From the NCBI GenBank assembly GCA_031414595.1, contig JANNVX010000014.1:32001-96000 (forward strand): a DNA stretch of 64,000 bases, given 5' to 3'. Made by a program: the position numbers and the translations under genes. Numbering within the stretch: the first letter of the stretch is position 1; every line of letters begins with the position of its first letter. Positions 1 through 27,162 of this stretch are shown here, one piece after another. Origin of the DNA: Deinococcales bacterium. Lineage in GTDB: Bacteria > Deinococcota > Deinococci > Deinococcales > JAAFIG01. The notes below the pieces were generated by a model. It saw nothing but the letters and a program-made list of their open reading frames with translations, ran no database searches and was not told where the DNA came from.

Positions 1-1
1 T

Positions 2-6786: not shown

Positions 6787-6949
6787 AGCCGAAGCATAGT
6801 GAGTATCTCTGTATTGAAAAGCACCATAATGCAATTTTTAGAAAAAAATCGAAGGGTGAGTGAAGAACATATTTTAGTTCACTCATAAGTCTCCAATCAT
6901 AAAAAGATCGTTGTAGTGAACTACACTTGAACAATATTTAGGAGTTTTT

Positions 6950-7414: not shown

Positions 7415-7419
7415 GAGCT

Positions 7420-7800
7420 ATGAATCGTGTAATGTACAAAATTCTATACCTTGAAGATCAAGAAGTAGGGCGGTTTTACGATTTTATTTTTAACGAAAAG
7501 TCTTGGCTTGTATTCATTTCTATTTCTGGAAATGAATACATAAACACTTTTCACCTTGAACATTTACCGTTCTCGGCTAATGTTAGAAAAATATGTGTAT
7601 GGTCATGTAAGGATGTTAGTTCAAAAAGTTCCATGAAAATCATTGAAGAATTGGAACTCAACTTGAAAAAATTCTCAAATAATCAGATGGGCTTTGGTGA
7701 TGTATTTGAAATTTACCAGCCAAATTGGGAAACTTGGGGTGCTGGAATTCCAGTGGAAATTTCTTCAAAAATTAGCGAACTTATGTCTGACTTGCCTTAA
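7420..7800 (+). CDS. Hypothetical protein, possible orphan immunity protein
   Basis: RBS AGGAG; AT-rich; sits in the toxin cassette region. Confidence 0.55.
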   Translation: MNRVMYKILYLEDQEVGRFYDFIFNEKSWLVFISISGNEYINTFHLEHLPFSANVRKICVWSCKDVSSKSSMKIIEELELNLKKFSNNQMGFGDVFEIYQPNWETWGAGIPVEISSKISELMSDLP

Positions 7801-7890
7801 AAGTTTAGAATAAAAATCTAAACCAGCTATACTAAAGATTAGTAAGTCATGAGAGGTAATTTTCAACAAGGTCTTGCGAATAGGAGTTTT

Positions 7891-8256
7891 ATGTTTACAG
7901 TTCGGTTTAATACTTTACTTCCAATCAGCTTTATCTCGCTTTGCGTTTTAACAATGCTTGGCTTGTTGGTGCGTGGTGTGGATTTCACTCGGTTGCTTGT
8001 GCCAGTGGTTCTTATTTTTGCAAGTTTCCGTGCTTTTTCCGCAGTTTACTTTTCGGTATATATGCAAACAGTTACCTTTAGGATTTCTTTCACGGCAGTT
8101 AAGCCGTTTGAGTTTCACAGTGCAGAAGTGCGTTCAGGGCGCTTGCATTTCTTGGATGCAACAGGTAAAACCCTCCTGAGTGTGGCAACTTGGCTATGTC
8201 GTACTGAGGATGTGAGTGCTTTGGTTAAGCAGTTTCCAGCATCCTCTAAGGAGTAG
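7891..8256 (+). CDS. Membrane protein (copy 2)
   Basis: ATG at 7891 after AGGAG; stop abuts the next gene. Confidence 0.7.
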   Translation: MFTVRFNTLLPISFISLCVLTMLGLLVRGVDFTRLLVPVVLIFASFRAFSAVYFSVYMQTVTFRISFTAVKPFEFHSAEVRSGRLHFLDATGKTLLSVATWLCRTEDVSALVKQFPASSKE

Positions 8257-8262
8257 GTCTTT

Positions 8263-9453: not shown

Positions 9454-9466
9454 GTTGGAGTGAATT

Positions 9467-11557: not shown

Positions 11558-11576
11558 GTGCAACCACGGAGGTTAT

Positions 11577-12821
11577 GTGAAGAAATTTTTTGGAATACTC
11601 TTAGTGATGGTCGCAGTTGCTGTAGGCATTGTCAGTCTTGCCGCAGCTTATCCAGCAAAACTCGAAAGTTTCCCTAGTGGATTTAGAATTCGAGCTGAAC
11701 AAAATATTCGTTTTTTTGTGGATTATCAGCAAAAGCAAATCATCGTTCCCGAAGCTCAATTGCCAGAGGGTACAAGTGTGCCATCAGATGCAAAGCTCGA
11801 GTTGCGAGCAGATGGTTTTATCCTAACCCTTTCCTATCCTTTTTCGGTAACGCTCAATCCATCAGGAAAATTGCTGACTATTCTCAAAGACGAACCAAAT
11901 GCTGTGCCTTCTGACGTTCGCATCCCCGTTTTTTACGAGATGCACAATGCCCAAGCATCCCAAGTCGCAGCTATTTTGACCCGTTTGTATCCTGGTTTGA
12001 AAGTTGAAGTTGATGAGCGTCAACGTTCAATCATAGTGCTACTCAGTCCTGCTGACCGTGAAGTAGTTGACCAAGTAATTAAACGCTTAGATGCACCACG
12101 ATTACAAGTCATGTTTGAAGCTGAAATTGTTGAAATAAACCGTAAAATATCACAGCAACTAGGCATAGATTACTCGAGACTTTTTAACCTTAACTTCAAA
12201 TTCAATGAAGGAACTCCACCCAATGGAGTGCTTGGCTTTGCGCCATTTCAACGCAGCCCTCTGTCACTTGAAGTGGGCATTAACCTGCTCAAATCAAACG
12301 GTGTGGCTAGAACACTCACTCGCCCTCGCATTGCCGTTTTGGATGGTCTCGAGGCGCGTATAAATGCTACTCAGACCCAGCCTATTCGCACAGTTGGCTC
12401 TGGTGGACAAGTTACTGTCTCCAATATCACCACAGGTATCAGTCTTCGTTTAGTTCCTAAAGTCGCTCCAGACAAGACCATTGAATCACAACTGAGTATT
12501 GCTGTTTCGTCACCTACAGGTATCTCGAGTGAAGGTTTACCAACCTACAGTACCCGTGAAGCGAGCACAACGGTACGAGTAAAAAATGCTGAGAGTATTG
12601 TTATCGGTGGATTGATCGAATCAAGGCGTAGTACCTCAAGTTCAGGAATTCCGGGGCTTATGGATATTCCAATTCTCGGAGAATTATTCAGAACAACCTT
12701 TACCGAGGAGTCTGACACCGATCTTTTGATTGTTGTTACCCCCTATGTAGTCAATAATGTCTTGCTCCCAGAAACTCCTCCTGCTCCAGAAACTCCTCAA
12801 GAACCACCAAGTCAACCATGA
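11577..12821 (+). CDS. Secretin (GspD/PilQ-type outer-membrane channel), short form
   Basis: N3-like domain, DAPRLQVMFEAEIVE, IVIGGLI, GIPGLMDIPILGELF and LLIVVTP; GTG start after GGAGG. Confidence 0.9.
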   Translation: MKKFFGILLVMVAVAVGIVSLAAAYPAKLESFPSGFRIRAEQNIRFFVDYQQKQIIVPEAQLPEGTSVPSDAKLELRADGFILTLSYPFSVTLNPSGKLLTILKDEPNAVPSDVRIPVFYEMHNAQASQVAAILTRLYPGLKVEVDERQRSIIVLLSPADREVVDQVIKRLDAPRLQVMFEAEIVEINRKISQQLGIDYSRLFNLNFKFNEGTPPNGVLGFAPFQRSPLSLEVGINLLKSNGVARTLTRPRIAVLDGLEARINATQTQPIRTVGSGGQVTVSNITTGISLRLVPKVAPDKTIESQLSIAVSSPTGISSEGLPTYSTREASTTVRVKNAESIVIGGLIESRRSTSSSGIPGLMDIPILGELFRTTFTEESDTDLLIVVTPYVVNNVLLPETPPAPETPQEPPSQP

Positions 12822-13249
12822 AAAGATTGAATTTGCTTTGGGTTTGTATTGTCTGTCTAATGGCGTGTGCGCCTGCGGTCAGTATTACATTTCAACCTCA
12901 AGTAAATAATCCTCTGACTCAAAAAATGATTGTGGCTTTTAAGGCTGTCTTTACTTATTATCAACTACAAGTTAAAGAACAGGCTTCATATCAATACGAC
13001 GGAACAGATGAACGAGCGTTTCTACTGGCAATTGATCAGTTTTACCTTGCAAATCCAGGTTTTTGTCCAATGAATGATGGATTCCATGTCAATGCAGATG
13101 GCACATTGCAAATGACCTTGGCAGCAAAAAAAGAACAGGTTATTGCTTTCATATATGACCTTCGGAATAAGCCCAAATTTGTTTATGTAATCGTCTCTGG
13201 AATTAGCCAAATTGAACCCCCTACTCGCCCTTGTCGTAACGGAAACTAA
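12818..13249 (+). CDS. Hypothetical lipoprotein
   Basis: Lipobox LMAC; ATGA overlap with the secretin stop. Confidence 0.7.
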   Translation: MKRLNLLWVCIVCLMACAPAVSITFQPQVNNPLTQKMIVAFKAVFTYYQLQVKEQASYQYDGTDERAFLLAIDQFYLANPGFCPMNDGFHVNADGTLQMTLAAKKEQVIAFIYDLRNKPKFVYVIVSGISQIEPPTRPCRNGN

Positions 13250-13257
13250 GGAATAAT

Positions 13258-13959
13258 ATGAAAAAATGGATTGTAATTACCGCTTTAATTGTAGGAACAG
13301 CTTTTGCCTTAGCTCAAAGTAATGGTTTAGCTTTATTCAACAAAGTTCGAGCTATACATGGGGATGCAGCTCTGACTGGACTCAAAACACTCCGAATTAC
13401 AAGTAATGTAGAAAATATTGACTCGGTAGGAAAGGTATCAATCCTTGCAACCCAAGTCGCAATTTACGATTTTGAAAATATGCGTTACAAATTGTTGGTC
13501 AGCACAGGAAATCAAGCTATAGACGGGTATCGAATAACTTCAAATGACTCAACTCAATGGACTCCGAAGGGCATCAAAGCAATCCCAGAAAGTCAAGCAA
13601 ACATCCTGCGGTATACATTTGTTCAAGGTATCCTACCTTTACGCCTCAATCCACAAACATGGACTTCAATCAATCAGACTTCTGGTACTATCGCAGGTTT
13701 GAACGGGGACATATTAACGTTGCAAAGTGCATCACAACGTACTTCATTACTTGTAAATAATGATGGTGAAATTCAGGCACAACGTTTTACCGTAGGCGAT
13801 CAATTTGAGACTGTCTTTGGGGAGTATCAAGTTATTTCAGGAATTCGCTTTGCAACTCGAGAACGATTACTGAGAAACGGGAATTTTGCCATTAGATTAT
13901 CGCATACCAAAATTAATGTTAATCCTTCACTCAATGCTACAGATTTTATTTTGCCGTAA
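13258..13959 (+). CDS. Hypothetical exported protein
   Basis: Signal peptide MKKWIVITALIVGTAFALA; RBS AAGGA. Confidence 0.7.
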   Translation: MKKWIVITALIVGTAFALAQSNGLALFNKVRAIHGDAALTGLKTLRITSNVENIDSVGKVSILATQVAIYDFENMRYKLLVSTGNQAIDGYRITSNDSTQWTPKGIKAIPESQANILRYTFVQGILPLRLNPQTWTSINQTSGTIAGLNGDILTLQSASQRTSLLVNNDGEIQAQRFTVGDQFETVFGEYQVISGIRFATRERLLRNGNFAIRLSHTKINVNPSLNATDFILP

Positions 13960-13988
13960 GAGTTTACTGCTCTAATTGACGGTCTGAC

Positions 13989-14110
13989 TCAGCTTTTCCG
14001 ACTGGTCATTCCAAACACAAAGGGTGGGGCTAGTTTACCCATTTCCTTAAGGTCTGCTTCGATTTCTTCGCGCTGATTGGTTTAGCGTTTAATGCCACTG
14101 GCTTGTAGCA
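13989..14110 (-). pseudogene. Remnant paralogous to the C-terminus of the 18299-18688 protein
   Basis: Translates LQASGIKR*TNQREEIEADLKEMGKLAPPFVFG versus LQPTGSTRQTNHRQQVKADFETMSKPVPAFVFG; internal TAA. Confidence 0.7.
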
Positions 14111-14590
14111 CCAATTTGGCATTTAAGTAAGACATAAATTCTCTTTAATCTAATCCCACCGCACAACTGCTTGACCCGTTCCAAATCACTTGTGAAATCA
14201 AGCAACCAATTGTCCATAATAGCTTTCTTCTTTGCCTAGCTTGAATTGGATGTGATGGATTTACGTTATTTATCATAGGTTAGTTGCGAGATTGAGTTCA
14301 CTACAGAGGAATTTATATTGCATTTATAGCCAAATTATATCTTTTTTATGATTTGGCTAATTTCAGTATATTCACTTGAAGCATAGTAAAGTTTACCGCA
14401 CAGTCACATTGAAATCAGCAATTTACTCATGTTCTTGAATCTAATTTCCTCCGCGCCGTTCCCTGTGTACTCACAAGGCAGCAGATTTGATTGGTTTTGG
14501 ACAAATTCTCAAAAGTGAGCGCACCGTAATATGACCCTCGAGATAATCATACATATCTCGAGTCCAAAAAACGCTTCCCGCCTTGCTTTA

Positions 14591-14911
14591 TCACTTCGTT
14601 GTACTCTTTTGACGTTTAGGTGGTAAATGATTTGAAGAAGGTTGTGCCAATAAATCAGATGGCTCAAGACCCATCTTTCGAGCTACTGTGAACAATCGAA
14701 GCAAAGTAGGATTAAACCGCCAGACCTGTTTACTCTCGAGTTGCTGATACCAATTCAGTCCAATGCCCAGTTGCTCGGCTGCCTTTTCTTGTGTCCAACC
14801 CAATTCCAATCTGCGTTGCCGAATGCGACTTTGAATCAATCGCAAGTATTCTGCATCTCGAGAATCTAATTCTCGTAGGAATTCTGTCAGTGCAGTTGAG
14901 CGTTGCGGCAC
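14591..14911 (-). CDS. XRE-family HTH transcriptional regulator
   Basis: IRQRRLELGWTQEKAAEQLG..YQQLE...NPTL. Confidence 0.85.
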   Translation of the reverse strand: MPQRSTALTEFLRELDSRDAEYLRLIQSRIRQRRLELGWTQEKAAEQLGIGLNWYQQLESKQVWRFNPTLLRLFTVARKMGLEPSDLLAQPSSNHLPPKRQKSTTK

Positions 14912-14945
14912 ATTGTTACAATTCGCTTTGCCATCCTCTTAGACA

Positions 14946-14963
14946 ACCCTGTTCAAACAGGGT
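14946..14963. promoter_or_regulatory. Inverted repeat ACCCTGTT-CA-AACAGGGT, candidate XRE operator
   Basis: Perfect 8-2-8 inverted repeat between divergent genes. Confidence 0.55.
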
Positions 14964-15045
14964 ATACTAACTTAACCATGACCAGCCAAAGCGTATGTAA
15001 CAGTAATTGGCTTGGGTCAATGAATCGCTAACAAGGTGAAGGGGT

Positions 15046-17043
15046 ATGTTCATGACAAAGCAGAAAAAATGGTTTCTGGCACTCGGTATTGGAATCTTGG
15101 CAATCGCAGTGGCGCAAAGTCCTTCATACACCTTTAGCATTGCTGGTCGTAATGTCAAGTTAAGCACCCTCGAACAAAAGAATCAAGTCTTTGTGAACAT
15201 CACCGAACTTGGCAAAGCAATGGGTTTTGGCGTGACCATTGACCAAAAGAAACGCACCGTTGTCCTCAGCAATACCTCGAGTGCCGTTGCCAGACTCACC
15301 CCACCTGTCAATCCCAATGCTCCAATCCAAGTCAATACCCTCACTGATACCCCAGATGCCAAACCAGGTGATGCCATTTGTGCCGATAGCCTAGGACAAT
15401 GCAGCTTAAGAGCCGCGATTCAAGAAGTGGTGGCACAAAAACGAACTCGAGATATTCGAGTACCCAATGGAACCTATACCCTCGAGCGAGGCGCGTTCAA
15501 TATCCCAGCCCAAAATGCTGCTTTCCAAGTCCGTATTCGCGGTGAGAACAAAGACAGCACCATCATCAATGCTGATGGACGAGACCGTGCTTTTGTGCTG
15601 AATGCAGGGCAGAAGTTGCTTCTCGAGAACTTGACCATTCGTAATGGGTCAACCACGGAGTCAGGTGGGGTGATCGCCATTCTTGGATATGGCAGTGGTA
15701 CAAACTCGGCTTTAACCCTCAAATCAACCAAATTCTTTGCCAACAAAGCCGGTGGGAGCGGCGCAGTGATCGCTGTTCTACAAGAGTATGGCAGTGTTTC
15801 AATTGACATCAGTCAATCTGAGTTTAGTGGTAACAGTGCCAGTAAAAATGGAGGGGCAATATCCGCAGTCATCGGTCAAGAGCCTACCAGCTTAACCATT
15901 GACAACTCAGTCTTTATTGAGAACTCGAGCCTTGGCAGTGGCGGAGCAATTCAAACCAATGGAAATCTGAAAATCACCAAATCGCAGTTTCTAAAAAATG
16001 AATCCAGTGGTGGTGACGGCGGGGCAATCTCGAGTCGCGGTTCAACCAACTTCAGTGATGTCACAATGGATGGCAATTCAGCTTCAAATGGTGGTGCGGT
16101 CTTTATTGGTAGAGATCAGAAAAACGTTTCATTTGAAAATACACGCTTTTTGAACAATACAGCCACCAGCAATGGTGGGGCGTTATTTATTGATATGCAA
16201 AGTGCCTTTAATATGACTAAATCAGCATTTACTGGCAATACCAGTAAAAACTCAGGTGGAGCAATCTTTGTTTCCAACAGCAATAACATCAGCATCGCTG
16301 AAACGAATATCTCCGCCAATCAAGCTCAGACCCAAAGTGGTGGTGGTATTTTTGTTGCCAGTACCAGTCAAATGGCTGTACGCAAGAGTCAGATTTTTGG
16401 CAATACTGCTACTGAAATGGGTGGTGGAATTTACATTCAACCTCAAGTATTCCAAGGATTATCACCGATTGTCACGATTGACAGCATAAGTCTGTACCAG
16501 AATCGAGCCAAGAACGGGGCGGGAATATACTCGGCTGGAAACCTAACCATTCAAAACAGTACCGTTTCACAAAACATAGCGTCCAATCAAGGTGGTGCAG
16601 TTTTCAGTGGAGAATCTCCTGAATCTCCACTAGCGCCAATTCTCGTTCTAACCAGTTCAACCTTTTACGATAACCAAGCAGGGGATACGAATGCTAACCA
16701 AGTTTACTCAAAGCAAAAATTCACAACTCGCTCGAGTCTGTTCTACAACAGCCAAGGCAAGAACTGCAATGCGCCAGAAGTGATTAGCCTTGGCTACAAC
16801 ATCGCTTCGGATGACAGTTGCAAATTGACTGGAAAAGCTGACCAGAACAATACTGACCCCAAACTCGGACTCCTAGCTGACAATGGTGGTGGTCTCTTGA
16901 CCCATCTGCCAGTGGTTGGTTCACCAGCCATTGATGTCGTGCCACTGAACACCTGTGAAGCTCGAGACAATCGTGGGGTGGTTCGGCCTCAAGGTGCAGC
17001 TTGTGATGTTGGGGCAGTTGAGCGCAGTCCAACGGATAAATAA
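15046..17043 (+). CDS. Secreted CSLREA-domain right-handed beta-helix (Pmp-like repeat) protein with choice-of-anchor Q-like C-terminus
   Basis: Signal peptide; CSLRAAIQE; many FxxNxA..GGAI repeats; DPKLGLLADNGG...GSPAID...RPQG..CDVGAVE. Confidence 0.85.
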   Translation: MFMTKQKKWFLALGIGILAIAVAQSPSYTFSIAGRNVKLSTLEQKNQVFVNITELGKAMGFGVTIDQKKRTVVLSNTSSAVARLTPPVNPNAPIQVNTLTDTPDAKPGDAICADSLGQCSLRAAIQEVVAQKRTRDIRVPNGTYTLERGAFNIPAQNAAFQVRIRGENKDSTIINADGRDRAFVLNAGQKLLLENLTIRNGSTTESGGVIAILGYGSGTNSALTLKSTKFFANKAGGSGAVIAVLQEYGSVSIDISQSEFSGNSASKNGGAISAVIGQEPTSLTIDNSVFIENSSLGSGGAIQTNGNLKITKSQFLKNESSGGDGGAISSRGSTNFSDVTMDGNSASNGGAVFIGRDQKNVSFENTRFLNNTATSNGGALFIDMQSAFNMTKSAFTGNTSKNSGGAIFVSNSNNISIAETNISANQAQTQSGGGIFVASTSQMAVRKSQIFGNTATEMGGGIYIQPQVFQGLSPIVTIDSISLYQNRAKNGAGIYSAGNLTIQNSTVSQNIASNQGGAVFSGESPESPLAPILVLTSSTFYDNQAGDTNANQVYSKQKFTTRSSLFYNSQGKNCNAPEVISLGYNIASDDSCKLTGKADQNNTDPKLGLLADNGGGLLTHLPVVGSPAIDVVPLNTCEARDNRGVVRPQGAACDVGAVERSPTDK

Positions 17044-17140
17044 CTTTACTTTTGCAGTTAAAAGGCGGAAAATGACTCGAGACTCCTCGAGATTTTGTCG
17101 CTACGGCAATGCGTTCTTAACACAACTGGATGGTTAAACC

Positions 17141-17584
17141 ATGCAAGCATTTATTCCCACAAGACCAGCACCCGCTCCACCAAGAGTATCACTGCTTGGA
17201 CTAAAAGCCACAACCATTTTAGAGGTTGGTGAAGCAGTCGAAAACGGTTTTGCCACAAGCCTTGTCAAGCGGTTTGCTTCGCATATCAATGCTTCGTTGC
17301 AAGATACACTCAAACTGCTGGATATAAGCAAACGCACTTTTCACCAATACCAACGCCATAAAAAGCCTCTGAGCCGAAGTGTAAGTATCAATGTGCTTCT
17401 CTTAGCCCAAATCACAGAGGCAGCCGAGCAGTATTTTGAAGATAAAACCAATGCCCATGCTTGGCTTGCCACACCTCGAACTACTTTTGGAGGCACGACA
17501 CCTCTTCAGTTCAGTCTGCTGCCCAATGGGGCTGAATACGTTAGAGCCGTGTTGAACAAACTCGAGCATGGGGTTGTTACGTGA
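17141..17584 (+). CDS. Xre/MbcA/ParS-type antitoxin (partner of RES toxins), apparently orphan
   Basis: ISKRTF HTH; A..WL.TP...FGG.TPL....GAEYV..VL.KLEHG. Confidence 0.8.
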   Translation: MQAFIPTRPAPAPPRVSLLGLKATTILEVGEAVENGFATSLVKRFASHINASLQDTLKLLDISKRTFHQYQRHKKPLSRSVSINVLLLAQITEAAEQYFEDKTNAHAWLATPRTTFGGTTPLQFSLLPNGAEYVRAVLNKLEHGVVT

Positions 17585-17724
17585 AATTTGTTTCTGCAAC
17601 GCGTTTTCAAATAGAAGTAAGCTCAACAATGGCAACTCGGGAAGCATGGATGTCCGAGCAACCCTTTTGGAGTGTCACAGTATAGCCCTAACGAAAAGTT
17701 GGGCTTTACCTGTTGAATCATTGC

Positions 17725-18117
17725 CTAAGCGTCTTCCTCATCTCTAAGCTCTCGAGTGAATATGTTGGATTCGCAATCAATTGGATGAAGACCTATGAAT
17801 TCTGCATAATCAATGTCGTTCTTTTCAAGGTTTTGGTGTTCGTTTTTATGGACTCCATTTAATCCTTCATCCAACATCCGAGCCAAATCCTCGACTTTCC
17901 CGCCCCGCTCCTTGAGAAGACGACAAAATTCTTGCCTGCCGATTGATTTTACCAAATCATCCCTATCAAAGAGCATCGCTGCGTATAATCTTGGTTCTGG
18001 CATAAAGGTTTTGTCGTGACTTGAGAATGCAATCAGGTCATAGTTAAGGTCACTTCTTTCACGAATCGCCACAAGACGCTTCCCGTACAGGTAAAAATGT
18101 GTGTTTTTCGGTAACAT
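17725..18117 (-). CDS. Hypothetical protein (start uncertain)
   Basis: Open frame; GAGG upstream of ATG 18117. Confidence 0.5.
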   Translation of the reverse strand: MLPKNTHFYLYGKRLVAIRERSDLNYDLIAFSSHDKTFMPEPRLYAAMLFDRDDLVKSIGRQEFCRLLKERGGKVEDLARMLDEGLNGVHKNEHQNLEKNDIDYAEFIGLHPIDCESNIFTRELRDEEDA

Positions 18118-18298
18118 TGTTGCCATCCTCATGCACTTGTAGAAAAGAACCTTGCAGCACCACCACAACCAAATCCCAACGACCACCAATGCTCAAAAAT
18201 CACGATTATGACTACTCAAGTAGGAAACGATACTATTGAGGTCATGCTGTGATGATTGATTTCAAACCAAAAGTAAATCATGAAACCACAAATAATCA

Positions 18299-18688
18299 CT
18301 ACCTACCACGGTATCCAAAAACAAAAGCTGGAACTGGCTTGCTCATCGTCTCAAAGTCGGCTTTGACCTGTTGCCTATGATTGGTCTGACGGGTGCTACC
18401 AGTGGGTTGCAATTGGTCTATCCAAAGTTCCAAAGCATCTTCTGGTGAGTCTTCGTAAACCTCGAGTATTTTAGGTTCGGTCGGTTTGATGCTATCCCAA
18501 TGGATGTACCGATGTAAGCGTTGTAAATGCTGTTCTGGACTTTGACTCGAGGCAATCAGTCCAAGCATGTGTGATTCCTCGAGCATGATTGAACCTGCTT
18601 CTTCGCTTCTTAGAAGTTGCAGTAATTTACTGGTGTAGTCACGCCAGACTGTGTTGACTTCACGTTTTTGACGGTTTCTTTGGCTCAT
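18299..18688 (-). CDS. Hypothetical protein
   Basis: ATG 18688 with GGAG RBS; paralogous remnant at 13989. Confidence 0.7.
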   Translation of the reverse strand: MSQRNRQKREVNTVWRDYTSKLLQLLRSEEAGSIMLEESHMLGLIASSQSPEQHLQRLHRYIHWDSIKPTEPKILEVYEDSPEDALELWIDQLQPTGSTRQTNHRQQVKADFETMSKPVPAFVFGYRGR

Positions 18689-18741
18689 ATGATTTACTCC
18701 TTTTACACATCTTTTGCTTGTAGTTGCTTTTATTTGAGAAA

Positions 18742-19086
18742 TTATCCAAACTTCCTTTGAACCAAACGCCAGCACAAAGTGACCATCAGACCAGCGAATA
18801 GAATCACTGCCCAACTTGGTAATTGCAGAATCACCGCCAAGCTGTATGAGTAAACCCCAGCACAAAAGGTTAAAGACCAGACCAATGGAATTTTGGCAAA
18901 TAATTGTAGAAACGCATCAAGATTATGCCCATAGTGCTTCTCGAGCAAGAATAGGATGATGGCAAAGACCATCAGGCTCGAGACAAGACAAAGCCCAATT
19001 GAGGCATTGACAGTCACGAGTAATCTTGTTGTCAAACCTCCAGCCAGAACTGCAAAAACAAGCAACTCGAGGTGAACCCTTTTCAT
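18742..19086 (-). CDS. Hypothetical membrane protein (about 4 TM segments)
   Basis: Hydrophobic segments; 4-nt overlap with upstream gene. Confidence 0.65.
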   Translation of the reverse strand: MKRVHLELLVFAVLAGGLTTRLLVTVNASIGLCLVSSLMVFAIILFLLEKHYGHNLDAFLQLFAKIPLVWSLTFCAGVYSYSLAVILQLPSWAVILFAGLMVTLCWRLVQRKFG

Positions 19087-19436
19087 GGTGTCTCCAAGTT
19101 CGCCTTGCCAAAAAACCGAGTATTCATTTGTTCTCGTAACCGATGATTCTCAAGGGTGAGTTTACCAAGTAAGCGCTCGAGTAGGATTTCTTGGGCTTTT
19201 GATCGCTCGAGTTGTTTTTGTAGATTCAAATTCTCGGTCTCGAGTAAACCAGATTGTTGTTCTGAACTAATAAAAGCATCATTACCAAAGCGTTCATATA
19301 AAGCTCGCCAAGAAAATAAGGTTGAAGCTAGGATTTTATGTTCTCGAGCCACAGCACTAGGTCGTTTGTGTTGTTCAATGACTTCCTTGACCATTCGCAA
19401 CTTAAATTCGGGGGTGTATAACTTTCGGTTTTTCAT
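19083..19436 (-). CDS. IS3-type OrfA-like HTH/leucine-zipper protein without OrfB
   Basis: RKLYTPEFKLRMVKE...VAREHKI..STLFSWR plus coiled coil ending LGKLTLEN. Confidence 0.75.
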   Translation of the reverse strand: MKNRKLYTPEFKLRMVKEVIEQHKRPSAVAREHKILASTLFSWRALYERFGNDAFISSEQQSGLLETENLNLQKQLERSKAQEILLERLLGKLTLENHRLREQMNTRFFGKANLETP

Positions 19437-19903
19437 GGTCTAGTCCTTACATTAAATGTAATCGTGTGAATCACGGTATCTTTTGTATCTCGAGGAAGTT
19501 CAGTAAGCTCTAATTGATGCTCGTTATTTAGGGTAAAAGCTATGGTGATTCGGCTTTTGGTTAAAGTCCATCCATCACTATTTACAGCACTTGATTCAAG
19601 AACTTGTAAAAAAGTGGTTAGAGCTTTCTCAAAGGTCGTCATAAATTGGGGGATTGGTGTTCCAAAATCATTAACAGTAAAACTTTGGCTATCCACTGAA
19701 AATTCAATGTGTACAAGTTCTTCCTTGGTGGTTACGCTGGTTGCAAGGTTTAGTTCGCTTGCTTTTCGGGTTTTGCTTGCTTTATCGAGATAGAACGCCC
19801 ATGTCACTTGGGTGATCTGAATTCTTGTGCCTAAAAGGTTATAGGTGTGCGCTATATTGAAGGTGCTTTGTACCGCACCAAGATAATCAATGGGCTGGTT
19901 CAT
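19433..19903 (-). CDS. Hypothetical protein
   Basis: Coupled by 4-nt overlaps on both sides. Confidence 0.65.
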   Translation of the reverse strand: MNQPIDYLGAVQSTFNIAHTYNLLGTRIQITQVTWAFYLDKASKTRKASELNLATSVTTKEELVHIEFSVDSQSFTVNDFGTPIPQFMTTFEKALTTFLQVLESSAVNSDGWTLTKSRITIAFTLNNEHQLELTELPRDTKDTVIHTITFNVRTRP

Positions 19904-20619
19904 TCTCGTGTCCCTAAGCCTAACTCGAGACCATCATCCAAAAGATGGTTTTCATGCTCGTTAGTTAAATTTTCCTCGAGAATAACTTTGCGTTTCATGG
20001 GTGGAATCCATTTCTTCCAATGCTCTGGGATTTCTAATCGCATTGGCTTGAGATTTTGAGCAATTAAGAAACCATGCTCGAGAACCCCAGTCATGTGTAG
20101 ATACCGAGCATCTTCGACCAAATTCAGTAAATCGAGGGTGGTTTTAGCACTGACCACAAATGGTTCTATTTTTTTGTTGTCTGGTGGGTAAACTCGCAGC
20201 AATACTAATTTCTCAGCTCGGTCTAAACGGAGGACTTTGCCAGCCGCACTCCAGAAGGTATCAGCACCATTCAAATCAACGGCATTCTCGAGGGGCATGA
20301 CTCGAGCCAAGGTGAGGTTGGCTAAGCGTTGGTCTTTGAAGGTCTTGCCGTACAACGTGGCTCTCCAAGTACCAGAGAGTTGGATTGAAGACTGTTCAGG
20401 GTGGGTGTTGCGCCACCTCGAGAAAACCCTTGGGTGAACTCGAGCGATGTAAGTACCATTTTTTGGATTGCCAAGTTGAATGGTGACTCGAGTGTTTTGC
20501 TGGTCATCTTGGATGGTGGCATTGGCTTGGATGAAGAAATGGTGGTTATAGTCGGTGTGAATACCTTTTGGCATTGGCTGTGGTGTGGTTACAAGAGTTT
20601 CAAAAACGTCATTTGACAT
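19900..20619 (-). CDS. Hypothetical protein, paralog of 20652-21248
   Basis: Shared WSA.G...D....LV..RVYP.....PF..SA motif; RBS GGAG. Confidence 0.75.
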   Translation of the reverse strand: MSNDVFETLVTTPQPMPKGIHTDYNHHFFIQANATIQDDQQNTRVTIQLGNPKNGTYIARVHPRVFSRWRNTHPEQSSIQLSGTWRATLYGKTFKDQRLANLTLARVMPLENAVDLNGADTFWSAAGKVLRLDRAEKLVLLRVYPPDNKKIEPFVVSAKTTLDLLNLVEDARYLHMTGVLEHGFLIAQNLKPMRLEIPEHWKKWIPPMKRKVILEENLTNEHENHLLDDGLELGLGTRE

Positions 20620-20651
20620 GCTATCTCCTATTCACGGGTTTCTTATCGTCT

Positions 20652-21248
20652 TTAGTTGGCTTTCCAGTTGCGCCAACGATCAGGAATTTCTAAATCTTGA
20701 TTGGTTAATACTTCTGCAACAAGCTTTTTGCCACTTAAGTTCCCTATCAAATGGACAAACTCATTTTTTCTTGGCAACTCTTGTTCTACTTTCAAACTGG
20801 CTGAAATCAAAAATGGCGTGGCTCGAGCTTGCTCAGGGTAAACCCGAATCGTGACCAATCGGTGTATTGGGTCACTTTTGGTGATTTGTCCAATAGCACT
20901 CCATCGCGGCTGGTGGGAATCTTCTCGTTCTAACTCGAGGGGTTCAATACGATGTAGGTGAAGTGGTTCAAACAGCACACTATCGTTCAAAGTGCGGAAA
21001 TGAAGCGTACATAACCACCAACGATGACTTGCTGGGTTGAGCCTTAACACATCTGCACTGGCTTTAACCCGAAGCATGGTGCTATCGGAGAGTTGGATGT
21101 CCATATTGTTACCGCTCCCTGAATCGTAAATACAAGCCGCCACTCGCATAAAAGCATGGCATCCATCAGGAATAGGAAAATCAAAAGTGAGTTTTCGTGG
21201 GGTAGTGGTCAATGGTCTGCCTCGAGCTTGGATTTTGTGACTGGTCAT
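20652..21248 (-). CDS. Hypothetical protein, paralog of 19900-20619
   Basis: Same motif; ATG 21248 after AGAGGTGG. Confidence 0.75.
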   Translation of the reverse strand: MTSHKIQARGRPLTTTPRKLTFDFPIPDGCHAFMRVAACIYDSGSGNNMDIQLSDSTMLRVKASADVLRLNPASHRWWLCTLHFRTLNDSVLFEPLHLHRIEPLELEREDSHQPRWSAIGQITKSDPIHRLVTIRVYPEQARATPFLISASLKVEQELPRKNEFVHLIGNLSGKKLVAEVLTNQDLEIPDRWRNWKAN

Positions 21249-21390
21249 AAGAAATGCCACCTCTGTACACATCGGATCGTGTTTGTTACAAAAGGTGGTG
21301 GTGTTAAACGAGATTGATTGTCTTGAACTGCCAACATGAGTTGTAAGCTCAAGTGCTGACCCTAATTGCTTGGGGCATTTACATTATAAC

Positions 21391-21406
21391 ACCGTATATA
21401 TACGGT
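21391..21406. promoter_or_regulatory. Perfect 16-bp palindrome ACCGTATATATACGGT, candidate XRE operator
   Basis: Lies between the divergent operon and the XRE gene. Confidence 0.6.
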
Positions 21407-21443
21407 TCTGCTAGTCAAAGTCAACCTGTAGCCTTCGCAAACG

Positions 21444-21671
21444 ATGCCTCGCTTTGCGGTAGACCCAGAGATAATACGTGTTCGCATTCGTCAATTACGA
21501 CTCGAACAGGGTTTAACCCAAGATGAAGTAGCAGCCCGAAGTGGAATCAACGAAAAGCACTATCAAGACCTCGAGACGGGAAGGAAAGCCTTTAATCCTA
21601 CTCTCGAGACCCTCAATGCTTTTGCTTTGACCTTTGAAGTGGAACTGGCTGTCCTTCTAAAATCGGAGTAA
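21444..21671 (+). CDS. XRE-family HTH regulator upstream of the tniQ-cas operon
   Basis: IRQLRLEQGLTQDEVA.RSGI...YQDLE.G...NPTL. Confidence 0.88.
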   Translation: MPRFAVDPEIIRVRIRQLRLEQGLTQDEVAARSGINEKHYQDLETGRKAFNPTLETLNAFALTFEVELAVLLKSE

Positions 21672-21838
21672 AACCGTAGATTCCTGACACGTTATTCGGA
21701 AATTTAACGTGAAATACACGGGAGTTTGAAAATCAGAGTTGGTCATTGTAGACCAAACAAAAACAGTATGCTAAGTTATCCGTCAGTGACAGACTATTAT
21801 AAATGTCAACGAAACCTGAATCTTGAGGTAATTAGGAT

Positions 21839-22798
21839 GTGTTTCATATGATTGAAACTGCCAAAAACCCACACTGGGCAATCCACCCTCAAATCCAAAA
21901 TGGTGAGTTGTTTGAATCTTGGATTGTGCGGTTGAGTGCCGAAAATGGCTTTCGCCTGCGCGAAGTGATACAGCAATTAGAACTCAAAAATGTCTTTTGT
22001 TCTAAAAACAATGTTGAGATCAAAGCCGTAAGAAAATTGTCGGATGCAACTGGGATACTTCAATATCGAATCCTCGAATCCCATCTTGGGTGGCTTCAAA
22101 ATCACTCTGATCTTGCCTATGCAAAAACATTTACCCTTTGGGGGCGTAGCCCATCGGACACGATACAGCATTTTAAGTTTTGCCCAGACTGTTTTGCTAA
22201 TCAAGACAAGCCACACATACTGCTTGACTGGGCATTTGAAATCACTCAGTTCTGCACGGTACATCAACGACCTTTACTCGAGCGTTGTCCAAAATGCCGC
22301 GAGCCACTTCAGTTTAGTTTGCTTTTCAACAAAACAATACAACCCGAAATCTGCTCTAATTGCAGCACAAAAATGAAAATCCATGCTCGGAAACACAGCA
22401 TTGATTTCAAATTTGGTCTCGAGCTACAAAGACAAATCTTGAGCCTCCGAAAACATGACCAAGTATCACCAAAACAATCACGAATTATCCCAGCAAAAAC
22501 GTTTTTATCAATTGTTGAGCGGATATTTTATCGCTTTACCAATTTACCCAACCAGCAAACCTTCTCTAAATTGACTGATCTCTCAGTTATGTTGCTGGAT
22601 GATCGTTTTTCGCAAGCGTACCGAAGAATAAACGCCCTGACCATTTGTGGCTGGCTTTTAGCCGACCCAATAGTACGAATTATTACTCTGCGCCAATTCA
22701 CGCAAAAGTATGTTGAATACTCGACGGCTATTCAAATTATTTCTGTTCTGAATTATGCACAAGCGACATTGCAACCACGTAATGGAACTTACCAATGA
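21839..22798 (+). CDS. tniQ: TniQ family target-selector protein
   Basis: N-terminal HP....GELFESWIVRLS..NG; zinc-binding FCPDC, FCTVH...LLERCPKC and CSNC; start at 21839 or 21848. Confidence 0.9.
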   Translation: MFHMIETAKNPHWAIHPQIQNGELFESWIVRLSAENGFRLREVIQQLELKNVFCSKNNVEIKAVRKLSDATGILQYRILESHLGWLQNHSDLAYAKTFTLWGRSPSDTIQHFKFCPDCFANQDKPHILLDWAFEITQFCTVHQRPLLERCPKCREPLQFSLLFNKTIQPEICSNCSTKMKIHARKHSIDFKFGLELQRQILSLRKHDQVSPKQSRIIPAKTFLSIVERIFYRFTNLPNQQTFSKLTDLSVMLLDDRFSQAYRRINALTICGWLLADPIVRIITLRQFTQKYVEYSTAIQIISVLNYAQATLQPRNGTYQ

Positions 22799-23529
22799 GC
22801 TTATTTGCACTCGAGGTTTGGGGCGATTACGCCTGTTTCACACGTCCTGAAACAAAAGTTGAAAGACTTAGTTACCCTGTGATGACTCCAAAAATTGCTC
22901 GAGCAATTTTTGGAGCGATCTACACCCAGTTTTCTGGGGGTGAAACACCTCACACAACTTTTTTCTGGCAAGTCAGGCGAATCGAAATCCTCAATCCAAT
23001 TGTGTTTATTTCGTTCTCACACAATGAAGTCAAAGGGAGAGCAAGCACTTACAACATTTTGCGCTCAGTTCATCAGCCCGACGCACTTCAACCGCTCATG
23101 GCAGATGGCAATGATGATTCCAGCAAAGAGACTGGGCGCACCCAACGCCAATCAATGATTTTGCGCGAGGTGCGTTATCGGATATTCGCTGAACCAGTGC
23201 TGTACAATCCAAACCAAAGCAATCTGAAGCAAATCACCCACGAATTTGCTCGACGTGCAGCCAAAGGCAAGTGTTTCCATCAGCCTTTTTTGGGATGCCG
23301 TGAATACATAGCATTTTTCCAGCCAGTTCCGCCCACATTTGGCGTTGGCGCACCGATTTTTGAAGATATTGGTTGGATGATCTACGATACGTTTGATCTA
23401 TCACAGCCAAGCTCAATCACCATTACACCAAGCATTAGTATCTTCAGGGCGACGATTCAAAACGGTGTTCTCGAGATACCGCCGTATGATAGCAACGAGG
23501 TACGCAAACTAGGACTGGGAGTGATTTGA
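22795..23529 (+). CDS. cas5c: Type I-C Cas5 (Cas5d)
   Basis: LEVWGDYACFTRPE.KVER.SYPVMTP; RRA.KG.CFHQPFLGCRE; F.A....GVL. Confidence 0.97.
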   Translation: MSLFALEVWGDYACFTRPETKVERLSYPVMTPKIARAIFGAIYTQFSGGETPHTTFFWQVRRIEILNPIVFISFSHNEVKGRASTYNILRSVHQPDALQPLMADGNDDSSKETGRTQRQSMILREVRYRIFAEPVLYNPNQSNLKQITHEFARRAAKGKCFHQPFLGCREYIAFFQPVPPTFGVGAPIFEDIGWMIYDTFDLSQPSSITITPSISIFRATIQNGVLEIPPYDSNEVRKLGLGVI

Positions 23530-25343
23530 TGCTCGAGGCTCTGATCGAATATGCTCACCGAAAACAATTGGTTCTCGAGCCTGGTTTTGCTGGCAGGCGT
23601 ATTCATTGGTTAATAAATCTTGACTCTAAAGGACAGGTTCAATCCGTTTCTTTTGCAGATGAATCCAAGCGACGAGCGAAGTTGTTTCCATGCTGTCCAG
23701 ACCTGCAACAGCCCCAACTGATCAGGCTGCCACATGTACTTAAACAGCTTGGAATACTATCAACACGAGCAGCCCACTTTTTAATGGATTCATGTTGTCG
23801 TGTGGTGCTTTATCCAGATAACGATCAGTTGGAACAACATAAGACTTTTCTAAACCTAATCCAACTAGCAAGCCAAGAAGTTAGGATATTACGACCAGTT
23901 GCAAAAATGCTTTCAAAGCAAAAGGAAATTGGTCGAGTACATCAAGCCCTCATTCAATTGAAAGCCACAAAAACCGACAAAGTATCGTTTTCGGTGGATG
24001 GAGTGGTCATACTTGAGGATACAACGTGGCATGATTGGTGGCGAAGATTTTATATAACCACAAGCTCAAAGCAAAATTCAGATCGTATGATCAGTCTGGT
24101 TTCAGGAGAAGTTATTTCGCCTGCCAGAACACATCCAGCGCTTAAATCCTTGGTCGAAAAAAAAGTAACTTTTGGAGCGGCAGTAGTGGCTGTGCATAAA
24201 ACTGCCTTTACCTCATATGGGCTAAAACAAGCCGAACACGCCGCCATGTCAGGAGCATCTGCCGCTGCCTATCATGCAGCTCTGGAAGATTTATTGAGAC
24301 AAACTAGGATGGTTCATGGTACGAAAGCGGTGTATTGGTACAACCAAGAAATTCCACTACAATCCGACCCACTGGCGCTGATGTTGCGCGATGAACGCAT
24401 AGATAACATCAACTACCGAAAACAGCTTGAGGATATTCTTTCACAAGCTCGAAAAGATGATTCTCGAGATGTTGCTTGCCATATTGCTGTGTTGCGTGAA
24501 AATGAAAATCGGGTCAGGATTTCATTGTACAAAACGCTGCGATTGAGTGAAGTGGCGGCTGGACTTATTAAATGGCTCGAGGATACTTCAATTGATGGTT
24601 TGGCAGGTACTGGTTTCGTAGTTGATCTACCCAGCGAATTTGCTGGTATGTTTCGTCAACGAGTTGGGGGAAAAAGCGATAAGGCACTTGACTTTCAACC
24701 ACTACTGATTGTGTTGTACCAGCAGATGCTCAACCCCACTCTACCCATTGCGATGGCTCTGGTTGATTATTCACTTAAATCGGTCATTACCAGCTTTGTA
24801 AAAGGCAAATTTCAGGCAGCATTTGCAACCAAGGCAGATTTACCATTGCGACAAAATTTGGTGATTTACATGGGTATTTTGAAAGCATTTTGCCGTCACT
24901 CAGGTGATCGAGACCTATTGCAACAACTGAATCCTAATCATCCTAATTCACACTATCAAACAGGTCGGCTCACTGCGATGCTCGAGCGTATTGATGGGTT
25001 GAATAATCCTCCACATGTTGAACTCAAAAACCAAAGGTTGTTTTTGCAAATTATGACGACACCGAACAATATCCTGCAAGAAAAAATGGCTTCCAGTCAA
25101 CGAAAGCTCAAGCGACTTGAAAGAACTCGACGATGGTTCAGCCTATACTTACAAAAAGAAATGAATACGATTTGGGAGAATCTTGATGCTAAGGTTCGGA
25201 GTAATAGCTCAGTAAAACGCCAATGCTTATTCCTATTGGGTTACTTTCAACAAACCATTTCTCAATTGATTGAACCTGTGCAAAACGATGATTTTTACAA
25301 TTTGGAGTCGAGAACCTTTAAGGAGCAACATGAAACCGATTGA
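23526..25343 (+). CDS. cas8c: Type I-C large subunit Cas8c/Csd1
   Basis: ML.AL..YA N-terminus; AFTSYG..Q...A; C-terminal Y..GRL.A.LE and Q..FLLGYFQQ; lies between cas5 and cas7. Confidence 0.9.
   Translation: MMLEALIEYAHRKQLVLEPGFAGRRIHWLINLDSKGQVQSVSFADESKRRAKLFPCCPDLQQPQLIRLPHVLKQLGILSTRAAHFLMDSCCRVVLYPDNDQLEQHKTFLNLIQLASQEVRILRPVAKMLSKQKEIGRVHQALIQLKATKTDKVSFSVDGVVILEDTTWHDWWRRFYITTSSKQNSDRMISLVSGEVISPARTHPALKSLVEKKVTFGAAVVAVHKTAFTSYGLKQAEHAAMSGASAAAYHAALEDLLRQTRMVHGTKAVYWYNQEIPLQSDPLALMLRDERIDNINYRKQLEDILSQARKDDSRDVACHIAVLRENENRVRISLYKTLRLSEVAAGLIKWLEDTSIDGLAGTGFVVDLPSEFAGMFRQRVGGKSDKALDFQPLLIVLYQQMLNPTLPIAMALVDYSLKSVITSFVKGKFQAAFATKADLPLRQNLVIYMGILKAFCRHSGDRDLLQQLNPNHPNSHYQTGRLTAMLERIDGLNNPPHVELKNQRLFLQIMTTPNNILQEKMASSQRKLKRLERTRRWFSLYLQKEMNTIWENLDAKVRSNSSVKRQCLFLLGYFQQTISQLIEPVQNDDFYNLESRTFKEQHETD
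24918..25343 (+). CDS. cas11: Putative internally translated Cas11 (141 aa, in frame within cas8c)
   Basis: AGGTGA at 24902-24907, then an in-frame TTG at 24918 just before the Y..GRL motif. Confidence 0.55.
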   Translation: MQQLNPNHPNSHYQTGRLTAMLERIDGLNNPPHVELKNQRLFLQIMTTPNNILQEKMASSQRKLKRLERTRRWFSLYLQKEMNTIWENLDAKVRSNSSVKRQCLFLLGYFQQTISQLIEPVQNDDFYNLESRTFKEQHETD

Positions 25344-26295
25344 AAATCGCTACGAATTTCTACTCATTTTTGATTGCGAAAATGGCAATCCCAATGGTGA
25401 TCCCGACGCAGAAAACCTTCCAAGAATAGACTCCCAAGACGGTCATGGATTGGTCTCTCCAGAATCAATCAAACGAAAGATTCGTGACCGTATTGCCCTG
25501 AATGGTATAGAAATCTTTATCCAACACCAAACCAATCTCAATCGTGCGATTTTTGCGGCGCGTGAACAGAGTAATACCTTAAAAGACAAATCCACCAAGA
25601 TAACATTACAAAACGCCGCTGCAATTATGTGTAAACGATTTTATGATGTTCGGACTTTCGGTGGGGTAATGACTACAGGTGTCAATTCAGGTCAATTGAC
25701 TGGACCTGTGCAGATTACATTAGCTCGCAGTGTTGACCCAGTTCATATCATGGATTGGGGAATTACTAGAGTGGCTGTTGCCGAAACTGTCCAAGGAGCA
25801 AAAACCCTGGCTGACTACGAACAATGGGAATCCGAACAAAATGCTTCAGATTTAAGAACTATGGGACGGAAAAGCCTGATTCCATATGGATTATTCGTAG
25901 CCAAAGGCTGCATCAGTGCGTTTGATGCGGAAAGAACAGGGTTTTCAGAAGCTGACCTCGAATTGCTCTGCGAAAGCATGTTAGACATGTTTGAACACAG
26001 TCGCAGTGCCAGTCGTGGTTTGATGACCACAAGGCGCTTGGTAATTTTTAAGCATATAGGATCATCCAAAGACCCCAAAGTGCGCCTCAAACAAGCTAAA
26101 CTAGGGCGTATTCCAGCACAAAATTTGCTCGAGTTAGGCAGAATTGTTCGCATTTCTCGCGTCAATAAAGATGCTTTTCCTCGAGCCTATCACGATTACG
26201 ACGTGGTTGTGGATACCAGTGCATTACCAGAAACCATTGAAGTGCTGGATTTAGATTTGTGGGATGAAGAAAAGTTTCGCTCGGCTTGGGTTTAA
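25330..26295 (+). CDS. cas7c: Type I-C Cas7 (Csd2)
   Basis: IENRYEF...FD..NGNPNGDPDA.N.PRID; FYDVRTFG.V; GPVQ; TMGRK..PYGL; ATG 25330 after AGGAG. Confidence 0.97.
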   Translation: MKPIENRYEFLLIFDCENGNPNGDPDAENLPRIDSQDGHGLVSPESIKRKIRDRIALNGIEIFIQHQTNLNRAIFAAREQSNTLKDKSTKITLQNAAAIMCKRFYDVRTFGGVMTTGVNSGQLTGPVQITLARSVDPVHIMDWGITRVAVAETVQGAKTLADYEQWESEQNASDLRTMGRKSLIPYGLFVAKGCISAFDAERTGFSEADLELLCESMLDMFEHSRSASRGLMTTRRLVIFKHIGSSKDPKVRLKQAKLGRIPAQNLLELGRIVRISRVNKDAFPRAYHDYDVVVDTSALPETIEVLDLDLWDEEKFRSAWV

Positions 26296-26467
26296 GCGAA
26301 CCCTTAGTGGCACTAAAATCACCTATAGTTCGCGGAAACCAAATTTCGTCTATGACGTGATTCTTCTGTGCGATATTGAGTAGTGATCAAAAAATTAATG
26401 TTGAATTATTGGGTTCGCAGAATGTATTCCTTTTTGACTTTGTACTATGAAAAGATATACATTTACA
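26296..26467 (+). promoter_or_regulatory. CRISPR leader with predicted promoter TTGACT(26434)-18 bp-TACATT(26458)
   Basis: GCGAACCC...GTTCGC...GGGTTCGC leader-type motifs; AT-rich; ends at the first repeat. Confidence 0.7.
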
Positions 26468-26645
26468 GTCTCAATGGCATCTAGCCGTCGAGACGCTTGA
26501 AACCAAACCCGACGAAAGGATGCACATTACGATAATCCGTCTCATGGGCATCTAGCCGTCGAGACACTTGAAACATTGCCATCTAAAGTCCAATCACATA
26601 CATTGGCATGTCTCTATAGCTTTTAGACATTGCGATGCTCGAGAT
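26468..26645 (+). CRISPR. Minimal CRISPR array: 36-nt repeats at 26468, 26539 and degenerate 26610; two 35-nt spacers
   Basis: Repeat GTCTCAATGGCATCTAGCCGTCGAGACGCTTGAAAC (hairpin, GAAAC end); third copy is 24/36 identical; period 71. Confidence 0.92.
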
Positions 26646-26717
26646 TTGGAACTTTACAAAAAAAGTCTTTGCAGTAGCGACAATAAACCGTTAGCACCAC
26701 TACATTCTCTTAAAACC

Positions 26718-26746
26718 TTGAATAAACATAGGACATGAGCTAGGAT
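26718..26746 (+). promoter_or_regulatory. Predicted promoter for the delocalised repeat-spacer: TTGAAT-17 bp-TAGGAT
   Basis: Canonical spacing; predicted start falls at the 5' end of repeat 26751. Confidence 0.6.
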
Positions 26747-26750
26747 TACA

Positions 26751-26808
26751 GCCTCAACGGTACTTAGCCATCGAGACGCTTGAAACTAACCAATTGACCT
26801 ATATGCCC
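26751..26808 (+). CRISPR. Delocalised atypical repeat (26751-26786) plus tRNA-targeting homing spacer (26787-26808)
   Basis: Repeat GCCTCAACGGTACTTAGCCATCGAGACGCTTGAAAC; spacer TAACCAATTGACCTATATGCCC matches the minus strand of 27086-27107 at 18/22. Confidence 0.88.
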
Positions 26809-26890
26809 GAATTTATTTTTTCCAAAGCCTCTTGTTCCAGATATGCGGAGGTCAAAGCCAAAAGGTTTGCTTGAAAGGAGTATTGGGATC

Positions 26891-27038
26891 ACTGACACGG
26901 TAAACGATAAGAAATGATATAGAATTTAACTCGAGTTCGTTAAACACAATGTTTATTTAGGAAAGTTCAATCAGTGCCACGGTAAACGATATTGACATTC
27001 ATAAAAATAATTACTGACAAAGTAAACGATAATTCACA
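26891..27038 (-). repeat. Tn7-like transposon end with three TnsB-type binding repeats
   Basis: ACTGACACGGTAAACGAT (26891), AGTGCCACGGTAAACGAT (26973), ACTGACAAAGTAAACGAT (27013), then 8 bp AATTCACA, i.e. a 5'-TGT terminus. Confidence 0.85.
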
Positions 27039-27043
27039 CCTAT

Positions 27044-27072
27044 TTGCCAAATGTGCATTTTACGGTTAATCT
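27044..27072 (+). promoter_or_regulatory. tRNA promoter TTGCCA-17 bp-TAATCT
   Basis: Canonical spacing, 13 bp upstream of the tRNA. Confidence 0.7.
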
Positions 27073-27085
27073 AGGGGTCGTGCGA

Positions 27086-27162
27086 GGGTCTATAGCTCAA
27101 TCGGTTAGAGCGGAGGTCTCATAAACCTTAGGTTCGGGGTTCAAGTCCCCGTGGACCCACCA
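27086..27162 (+). tRNA. tRNA with CAT anticodon, most likely tRNA-Ile2 (lysidine); elongator Met not excluded
   Basis: Full cloverleaf: GGGTCTA/TGGACCC acceptor, GCTC/GAGC D-stem, GAGGT-CTCATAA-ACCTT, CGGGG-TTCAAGT-CCCCG, ACCA end. Confidence 0.95.

Follow-up and report, generated by a model that had tools for sequence, protein, structure and literature searches.

Nine type I-C CASTs were reported by Rybarski et al. in 2021, in which, as far as the accessible part of that report goes, TniQ adjoins TnsABC and no array, self-targeting spacer, tRNA or other known attachment site is found (10.1101/2021.08.16.456562). The available part of PMC11300857 restates that I-C CASTs come without arrays, and those of PMC12669027 and PMC11656645 count I-C among the CAST varieties. 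The term 'I-C' occurs nowhere in a 2024 CAST review (PMC11406308), the main text of PMC10293859 contains none of 'I-C', 'Deinococc' and 'delocalized', and no I-C CAST is mentioned in the accessible part of PMC10910872. Our search of largely open-access papers returned no description of an I-C CAST that has a homing guide or comes from Deinococcota. Truncated delocalised guides (type V-K) and sixth-position mismatches (type I-F3) are already known.

We analysed a 64,000-nucleotide stretch of contig C14 in the genome of a Deinococcales bacterium (G000), hereafter the window, in which a single diverged repeat and a short spacer lie off a CRISPR array, beside a tRNA gene. A sequence-only reading had proposed that this spacer is a delocalised homing guide. 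The proposal is backed by the anatomy of the transposon and by three related elements, whose different guides match the sites flanking their own ends. The lone unit would hence be the RNA-guided homing (attachment-site) guide, of short length, of a type I-C CAST, a reading that we hold at about 85%. The targeting of I-C CASTs was left open in the 2021 report, and the elements described here would supply the missing targeting logic.

Compared by description, not by sequence, the element resembles the I-C CASTs in the accessible part of Rybarski et al. in its Tn7-like transposase, its TniQ and its Cas5-Cas8c-Cas7 set without Cas3 or Cas1. Unlike in those, tniQ (from C14:53839) is the first gene of the cas operon and is separated by about 40 kb from tnsAB-tnsC (C14:10399-13681, immediately inward of the far end), TnsA is fused to TnsB, and the element has an array, a putative homing guide and attachment sites; the gene order of the published set, with TniQ by TnsABC and the cas genes downstream, is not found here. 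Type V-K units, in the available part of their description (10.1101/2021.02.06.429022), likewise have a short guide after a single repeat off the array, varied tRNA targets, a PAM and the left end toward the target; they differ in their Cas12k, their 17-nt, mostly perfect spacer and their 13-nt partial repeat, whereas here we find a class 1 Cascade, a full-length, diverged 36-nt repeat, a 20-24-nt match with six-base periodicity and a putative TnsA domain. I-F3 CASTs, again from the accessible part of the source (10.1101/2020.07.02.184150), resemble the element in having one tniQ gene within the cas operon, an Xre regulator and diverged repeats, as well as sixth-position mismatches on codon wobble and, in one sub-branch, a spacer 10-12 bp shorter. 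They have Cas8/5-Cas7-Cas6 and target mainly yciA, guaC, ffs and rsmJ, in contrast to the absence of Cas6, the YTC PAM, the inclusion of tRNAs among the targets and the absence of a 3' repeat on the guide here. Finally, the I-B2 and I-D CASTs have a fused TnsAB, a short TniQ, the left end by the target and tRNA sites; in the part of PMC9881144 available, their tRNA homing runs via the TnsD protein, unlike here, where no TnsD was found. Judged by sequence, the unit resembles the homing units of V-K and I-F3 and the element has the features expected of a type I-C CAST; delocalised short homing guides have probably had a further, separate origin here.

Anatomy of the element and its genes

The Tn7-like element measures 48.8 kb (G000:C14:10220-59038). 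Its termini are TGT and ACA, flanked on both sides by an identical 5-bp duplication, and it thus combines TG...CA ends, several TnsB sites and a 5-bp duplication, as Tn7-like elements do; the layout of the left end is the same in three relatives (Table 1). The site is empty in G005, a genome of the same genus with one CCTAT and flanks 92-96% identical, and the insertion is therefore recent. Contigs of runs X5 and X6 carry the same element end by the same tRNA, with differing flanks of about 44-45 nt.

The fused TnsAB has 821 aa from its ATG. As a profile it matches solved TnsB/TnsAB (E 8e-14); as a single sequence it gives weak Pfam matches below the cut-off and no match in a PDB search. Its N-terminus matches Tn7_TnsA-like_N at E 8e-4 and 2e-4, both below the cut-off, and E..E, T-x-D and C-K-P residues are invariant in nine homologues. 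TnsC belongs to the TniB family (PF05621, E 2.5e-31) and also matches solved TnsC, while the best fold match of TniQ is a type I-B CAST TniQ (8fcu_P, E 5.5e-6).

The cas5, cas8 and cas7 genes abut, with no other ORF of at least 80 aa up to the array and no Cas6, and form a type I-C effector set (Cas5c, Cas8c and Cas7c). The cas7c ORF is listed from 25270; we chose the ATG at 25330, consistent with the relatives. No clear internal start for Cas11 could be picked. Cas3 and Cas1 profiles matched on other contigs only and nowhere on C14; the host has a separate I-C system that includes Cas3, Cas4 and Cas1, and whose Cas7 is 39% identical to that of the element. With three cas genes, no Cas6 and a fused TnsAB, the system consists of six genes, fewer than in I-F3 or I-B CASTs, and this small gene number is relevant to programmable DNA insertion.

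In B. halodurans Cas5d, RNA cleavage requires a Lys-His pair, according to the accessible part of PMC3973291. Aligned via other Cas5c structures, the pair corresponds to Gln-Ile here, and its Lys is retained in one of four elements; since the pair is lost, self-processing of the repeat is unsure. The CAST Cas5c proteins also show an insertion after the A-I-Y/F motif and are without the Lys-aromatic pair of canonical Cas5c. At G000:C101:2925-5153 and C17 near 43620, the same genome holds a second Tn7-like element (TnsC, a 410-aa TniQ and an adjoining CRISPR array) and a separate TnsA-like fragment.

Table 1. Features of the element and its target site (window positions unless given with a contig)
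Feature	Positions	Strand	Details
Element portion inside window	1..27038	+	far end, tnsAB and tnsC lie beyond the window (C14:10220-13681)
Xre-type HTH gene	21444..21671	+	HTH_3 E 3e-11; directly 5' of tniQ; candidate regulator
tniQ	21839..22798	+	319 aa, short form; PF06527 E 4.5e-16
cas5c (Cas5d)	22795..23529	+	TIGR01876 114 bits, cut-off 85
cas8c (Csd1), diverged	23526..25343	+	PF09709 E 1.8e-57, above Pfam cut-off; TIGR01863 152 bits, below cut-off 219
cas7c (Csd2)	25330..26295	+	TIGR02589 277 bits, cut-off 182
Mini-array	26468..26645	+	repeats 26468-26503 and 26539-26574; 35-nt spacers 26504-26538 and 26575-26609; degenerate third repeat from 26610
Delocalised repeat	26751..26786	+	diverged from array repeat; hairpin and 3' end retained
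Putative homing guide, short	26787..26808	+	22 nt of match; no repeat 3' of guide
Target-proximal (tnsAB-distal, 'left') end	26890..27038	-	three spaced TnsB-type sites, cores 26900, 26982 and 27022; terminal TGT
Target-site duplication CCTAT	27039..27043	+	second copy C14:10215-10219; single in G005
tRNA, anticodon CAT	27086..27162	+	ARAGORN call Met; could be elongator Met or Ile2
Candidate protospacer	27086..27107	-	acceptor stem 5' strand and D-arm of tRNA; position 1 is 69 bp from element end
Candidate PAM CTC	27108..27110	-	present in 14/14 orthologous tRNAs

The lone repeat and the guide-tRNA match

The lone repeat stands 176 nt past the second repeat of the array. Genome-wide, the repeat occurs at up to four mismatches in three copies only, the two of the array and the lone one, and the inner stem of the repeats carries compensatory changes at three of its eight pairs. 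The array spacers find no target in their own genome, and they differ in contigs of runs X5, X6 and X9.

The guide matches the minus strand of the tRNA gene at 18 of 22 positions, with mismatches solely at positions 6, 12, 18 and 19, and its position 22 pairs with tRNA base 1; the alignment proposed by the sequence-only reading, with its CTC flank and its end at tRNA base 1, is reproduced exactly. None of 5,000 shuffled guides scored 18/22 in the 1 kb downstream on either strand, the top shuffle score being 17 (5/5000), and the probability that four mismatches in 22 cover all three sixth positions is 0.0026. A match by chance would find some support in the one further 18/22 site that the unmasked guide has in the 4.49-Mb genome (C62; mismatches at 3, 8, 14 and 21). 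When positions 6, 12 and 18 are masked, however, the tRNA becomes the best non-self site genome-wide (18/19, the runner-up reaching 16/19), and the other five mask registers do not single it out. The guide-tRNA match is not due to chance; we give coincidence next to no weight, and the recurrence of the design in three of three relatives rules it out. A better full-length match to a phage or plasmid, which had been raised against the homing proposal, was not found either: the guide has no exact match in IMG/VR, searched for exact matches only, and the 421-nt array region gave nothing better than fragments at E 2-5 against phages (four records) and plasmids (one record).

The insertion lies upstream of the tRNA gene, whose promoter may have been spared. 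By eye, a -35-like hexamer is seen just past the duplication, followed after 17 nt by a weak -10-like hexamer (27044-27072). A promoter scan returned three sites against 2.6 expected, the pair at 27044-27072 not among them, and no terminator was found.

Related elements, guide length and a homing model

Among 364 genomes of the phylum, this TniQ is found at full length in four only (G000, G004, G014 and G010), all members of the query alignment, and the next best match has E 1e-25. The three relatives come from the same Deinococcales family, and each combines the gene order tniQ-cas5-cas8-cas7 with a short array and an end laid out in the same way. A delocalised repeat is followed immediately by a guide in all four elements, with no repeat downstream of it in any. 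A comparison of spacers among related elements, suggested together with the proposal, bears it out: the guides differ, and each matches the site beside its own end. Firstly, in G010, the unit follows the array and its guide matches the 3' end of a gene for an ABC permease (PAM TTC, 67 bp to the element end). Secondly, in G014, it lies on the opposite strand at a distance of 3 kb from the array and matches a tRNA-Leu(GAG) (PAM TTC, 66 bp). Thirdly, in G004, it lies upstream of tniQ, also on the opposite strand, and matches a tRNA-Arg(CCT) (PAM CTC, 65 bp); this protospacer had been guessed from the end distance ahead of locating the guide, the guess being recorded afterwards. With the guide register set by the 3' end of each repeat, the end of each of the four elements lies 65-69 bp from position 1, which is 68-72 bp from the start of the PAM. 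The arrangement known from CASTs, a short array plus a guide whose target keeps a constant distance from, and orientation to, the element end, is present in 4/4. The PAM is TTC in two elements and CTC in two; the CTC here is unlike the TTC of the I-C systems of B. halodurans and D. vulgaris (PMC7049708 and 10.1101/2022.06.15.496202, in their accessible parts).

The pattern of a mismatch at every sixth base, noticed in the sequence-only reading for a single guide, recurs in the guides of the three relatives. Over positions 1-18 of the four guides, mismatches occupy 10 of the 12 sixth positions versus 7 of the remaining 60 (Fisher p 2e-6, for kin elements whose guides have four different targets). 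This proportion is close to the 9/12 expected from free drift, and selection for mismatches is therefore unnecessary. In G010, the sixth positions of the guide fall on third codon positions of the permease gene, as described for I-F3. Class 1 Cascades flip every sixth guide base (accessible parts of PMC11127173 and PMC9881144), and the natural mismatch pattern provides comparative support for six-base flipping in the I-C Cascade. Both ends of three elements, four natural guide-target pairs, the PAMs and the spacing constitute a parts list that makes guide-directed I-C transposition directly testable.

The claim that the guide is truncated fared less uniformly. The end of the match at tRNA base 1 shows no truncation, because the flank upstream of the tRNA varies between hosts; the G004 match, on the other hand, stops at 24 nt inside the tRNA, which favours a short guide. 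Alternatively, a crRNA of normal length (about 35 nt) could direct homing; the distal third of its guide would then have drifted where it extends beyond the conserved target, and 'truncated' would describe the match and not the RNA. The match does end at or near the tRNA end both here and in G014; flanks vary between hosts; type I-D tolerates distal mismatches (PMC9881144, accessible part); and no signal at the guide 3' end is common to the four elements, the hairpin here being nonsignificant (z 0.7). A crRNA of normal length is nevertheless disfavoured by the stop inside the tRNA in G004, by the G010 match, which fades at 23 nt inside the gene, by the absence of a downstream repeat in all four elements and by downstream hairpins that start at guide position about 24-29 in three relatives, significantly so in two. 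We regard it as unlikely, though it deserves to be kept in view. The spacing does not settle the matter. The element end lies 41-45 bp past a 24-nt R-loop, and insertion in a type I-F assay occurs 43-45 bp past the target (PMC11300857, accessible part); in type I-D, insertion with normal guides occurs 75 +/- 6 bp from the PAM start (PMC9881144, accessible part), and since 68-72 bp overlaps this range, spacing alone proves no short R-loop.

The homing reading with a short guide can be cast as the following model. The transcript of the lone repeat and guide would be cleaved at the repeat, with Cas5c the probable nuclease. Once loaded with this RNA, Cas5c-Cas8c-Cas7 would recognise a YTC PAM in a conserved chromosomal gene and open an R-loop there of about 20-24 nt, every sixth guide base presumably staying unpaired as in class 1 Cascade structures. 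The short TniQ would bridge Cascade to TnsC, and the fused TnsAB would insert the element, with the observed geometry of a tnsAB-distal end 65-69 bp from position 1 and a 5-bp duplication. The mini-array, for which no target was found in its own genome, might serve transfer into mobile DNA. More speculatively, the diverged repeat and the short, mismatched guide may keep the self-targeting RNA off the host's Cas3-bearing I-C system. Several points count against the model: the CTC PAM, the mismatch at position 19, the seed mismatches of the G010 guide (at 3, 4 and 5), the mismatches of the G004 guide at 14, 16 and 17, the loss of the Cas5c Lys-His pair and the lack of a shared signal at the guide 3' end.

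Target-site duplications were matched across contigs in G004 and G014; the far end of the G010 element was not found. In G014 (L047:2549-2552), two copies stand in tandem at one site, with the right end of the newer, tnsAB-bearing one directly against the left end of the older; from this we infer two insertions 3 bp apart, and the tandem suggests weak target immunity. Within the element end of G004, a second tRNA-Arg(CCT) gene (L013:367-443) has two extra seed mismatches to the guide (at 3 and 4), which may reflect avoidance of self-insertion. A transposase-like ORF, presumably IS5-like from its motifs, lies between cas7 and the array of the same element (L013:848-1636). Scans of metagenomes for further elements confirmed 0/52 and 0/55 stretches and a genome scan returned the three known contigs only. 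The TniQ family has 12 more clusters at E <=3e-44 in a 1.8-billion library.

Earlier hosts, origin and cargo

The sequence-only reading took position 19 as a hint of an earlier host. We compared the guide with orthologous tRNAs at 18 loci; without L064, L066 and L067 (partial or not tRNA) and without the copy of G000 itself, 14 remained. The CTC PAM is present in all 14 full-length tRNAs, and each of them differs from the guide at 6, 12 and 18, so that these differences were not inherited from any of the 14. Position 19 pairs in 4/14, and the tRNAs of G007 and G012 (2/14) mismatch at 6, 12 and 18 only, as the hint would have it. For the G010 guide, two of nine orthologous permease genes fit better than that of the present host, without two of the three seed mismatches. 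An earlier host is the simple reading and fits these comparisons; a change of the target after insertion is the alternative.

A related possibility is that the unit once directed insertion and is now a relic, nonworking in the present host with its weak PAM. The mismatch at position 19 and the better fit of the G007 and G012 tRNAs would agree with this, as would the diverged Cas5c motif and the long Cas7 branches. All six transposition and cas frames are open, however, the insertion is recent, and in contigs from two further runs this element end occurs by the same tRNA with different flanks; a relic is improbable.

In a Cas7 tree with 26 other close Deinococcota I-C Cas7 proteins, rooted on the host's own Cas7, the four element Cas7 proteins form one clade (100/99), on long branches for which attraction is possible. 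TnsAB relatives occur in 14/364 genomes. In three sister elements from another family, which have the same TnsAB, tnsC is accompanied by long TniQ/TnsD genes, and no match to cas genes lies within the 17.5-20 kb examined; this count of 3/3 refers to regions with TnsAB-TnsC-TniQ and excludes L098 and L099, which have no full set. These relationships point to a single capture of an I-C Cascade by the TnsAB lineage. In a fuller version, to which we give even odds, a Deinococcus-lineage TnsAB transposon that dropped TnsD would have captured an I-C Cascade independently, yielding a class 1 CAST of cut-and-paste type with six genes, a homing guide of about 22-24 nt behind a single repeat and a shortened Cas7 backbone, the shortness of the guide keeping it private from the host Cas3.

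The sister elements also lend some weight to homing by protein only, through TniQ or a TnsD acting in trans, with the repeat-guide unit a by-product or an RNA that represses or pairs with the tRNA. The 410-aa TniQ of the host's other Tn7-like element and the antisense orientation of the present guide relative to the tRNA would be in keeping with it. Yet the guides of the two other tRNA-targeting elements are sense, and one TniQ family serves four unrelated targets, each matched by a guide at fixed distance. Moreover, pure TnsD-type homing, against which the proposal was to be checked, finds no TnsD frame in the element: with 151 TniQ/TnsD-like queries, the only match there is the short tniQ frame. 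Protein-only homing is very improbable, and RNA-guided homing by the lone unit remains the reading that we prefer.

Among the cargo genes (window 20-6786; L001:9651-15937) are one for an RHS-repeat protein that bears a Pretoxin-HINT domain, with a SUKH/SMI1 immunity gene next in line, a double-GTPase (GAP1/GASH) system and a SIR2-like gene. An Xre/MbcA/ParS-type antitoxin gene also lies in the cargo (17141-17584). Two genes without a Pfam family are found 5' of the cas operon (window 19900-21272); one of them, of 206 aa, resembles by eye a gene near the G014 array (L014:6012-6590). At 56138-56281, the window contains a cluster of repeated 11-mers resembling DnaA boxes, probably the replication origin. 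Elsewhere in the genome, atypical tRNA genes are densely clustered (G000:C56 near 2769-3691), probably on a mobile element.
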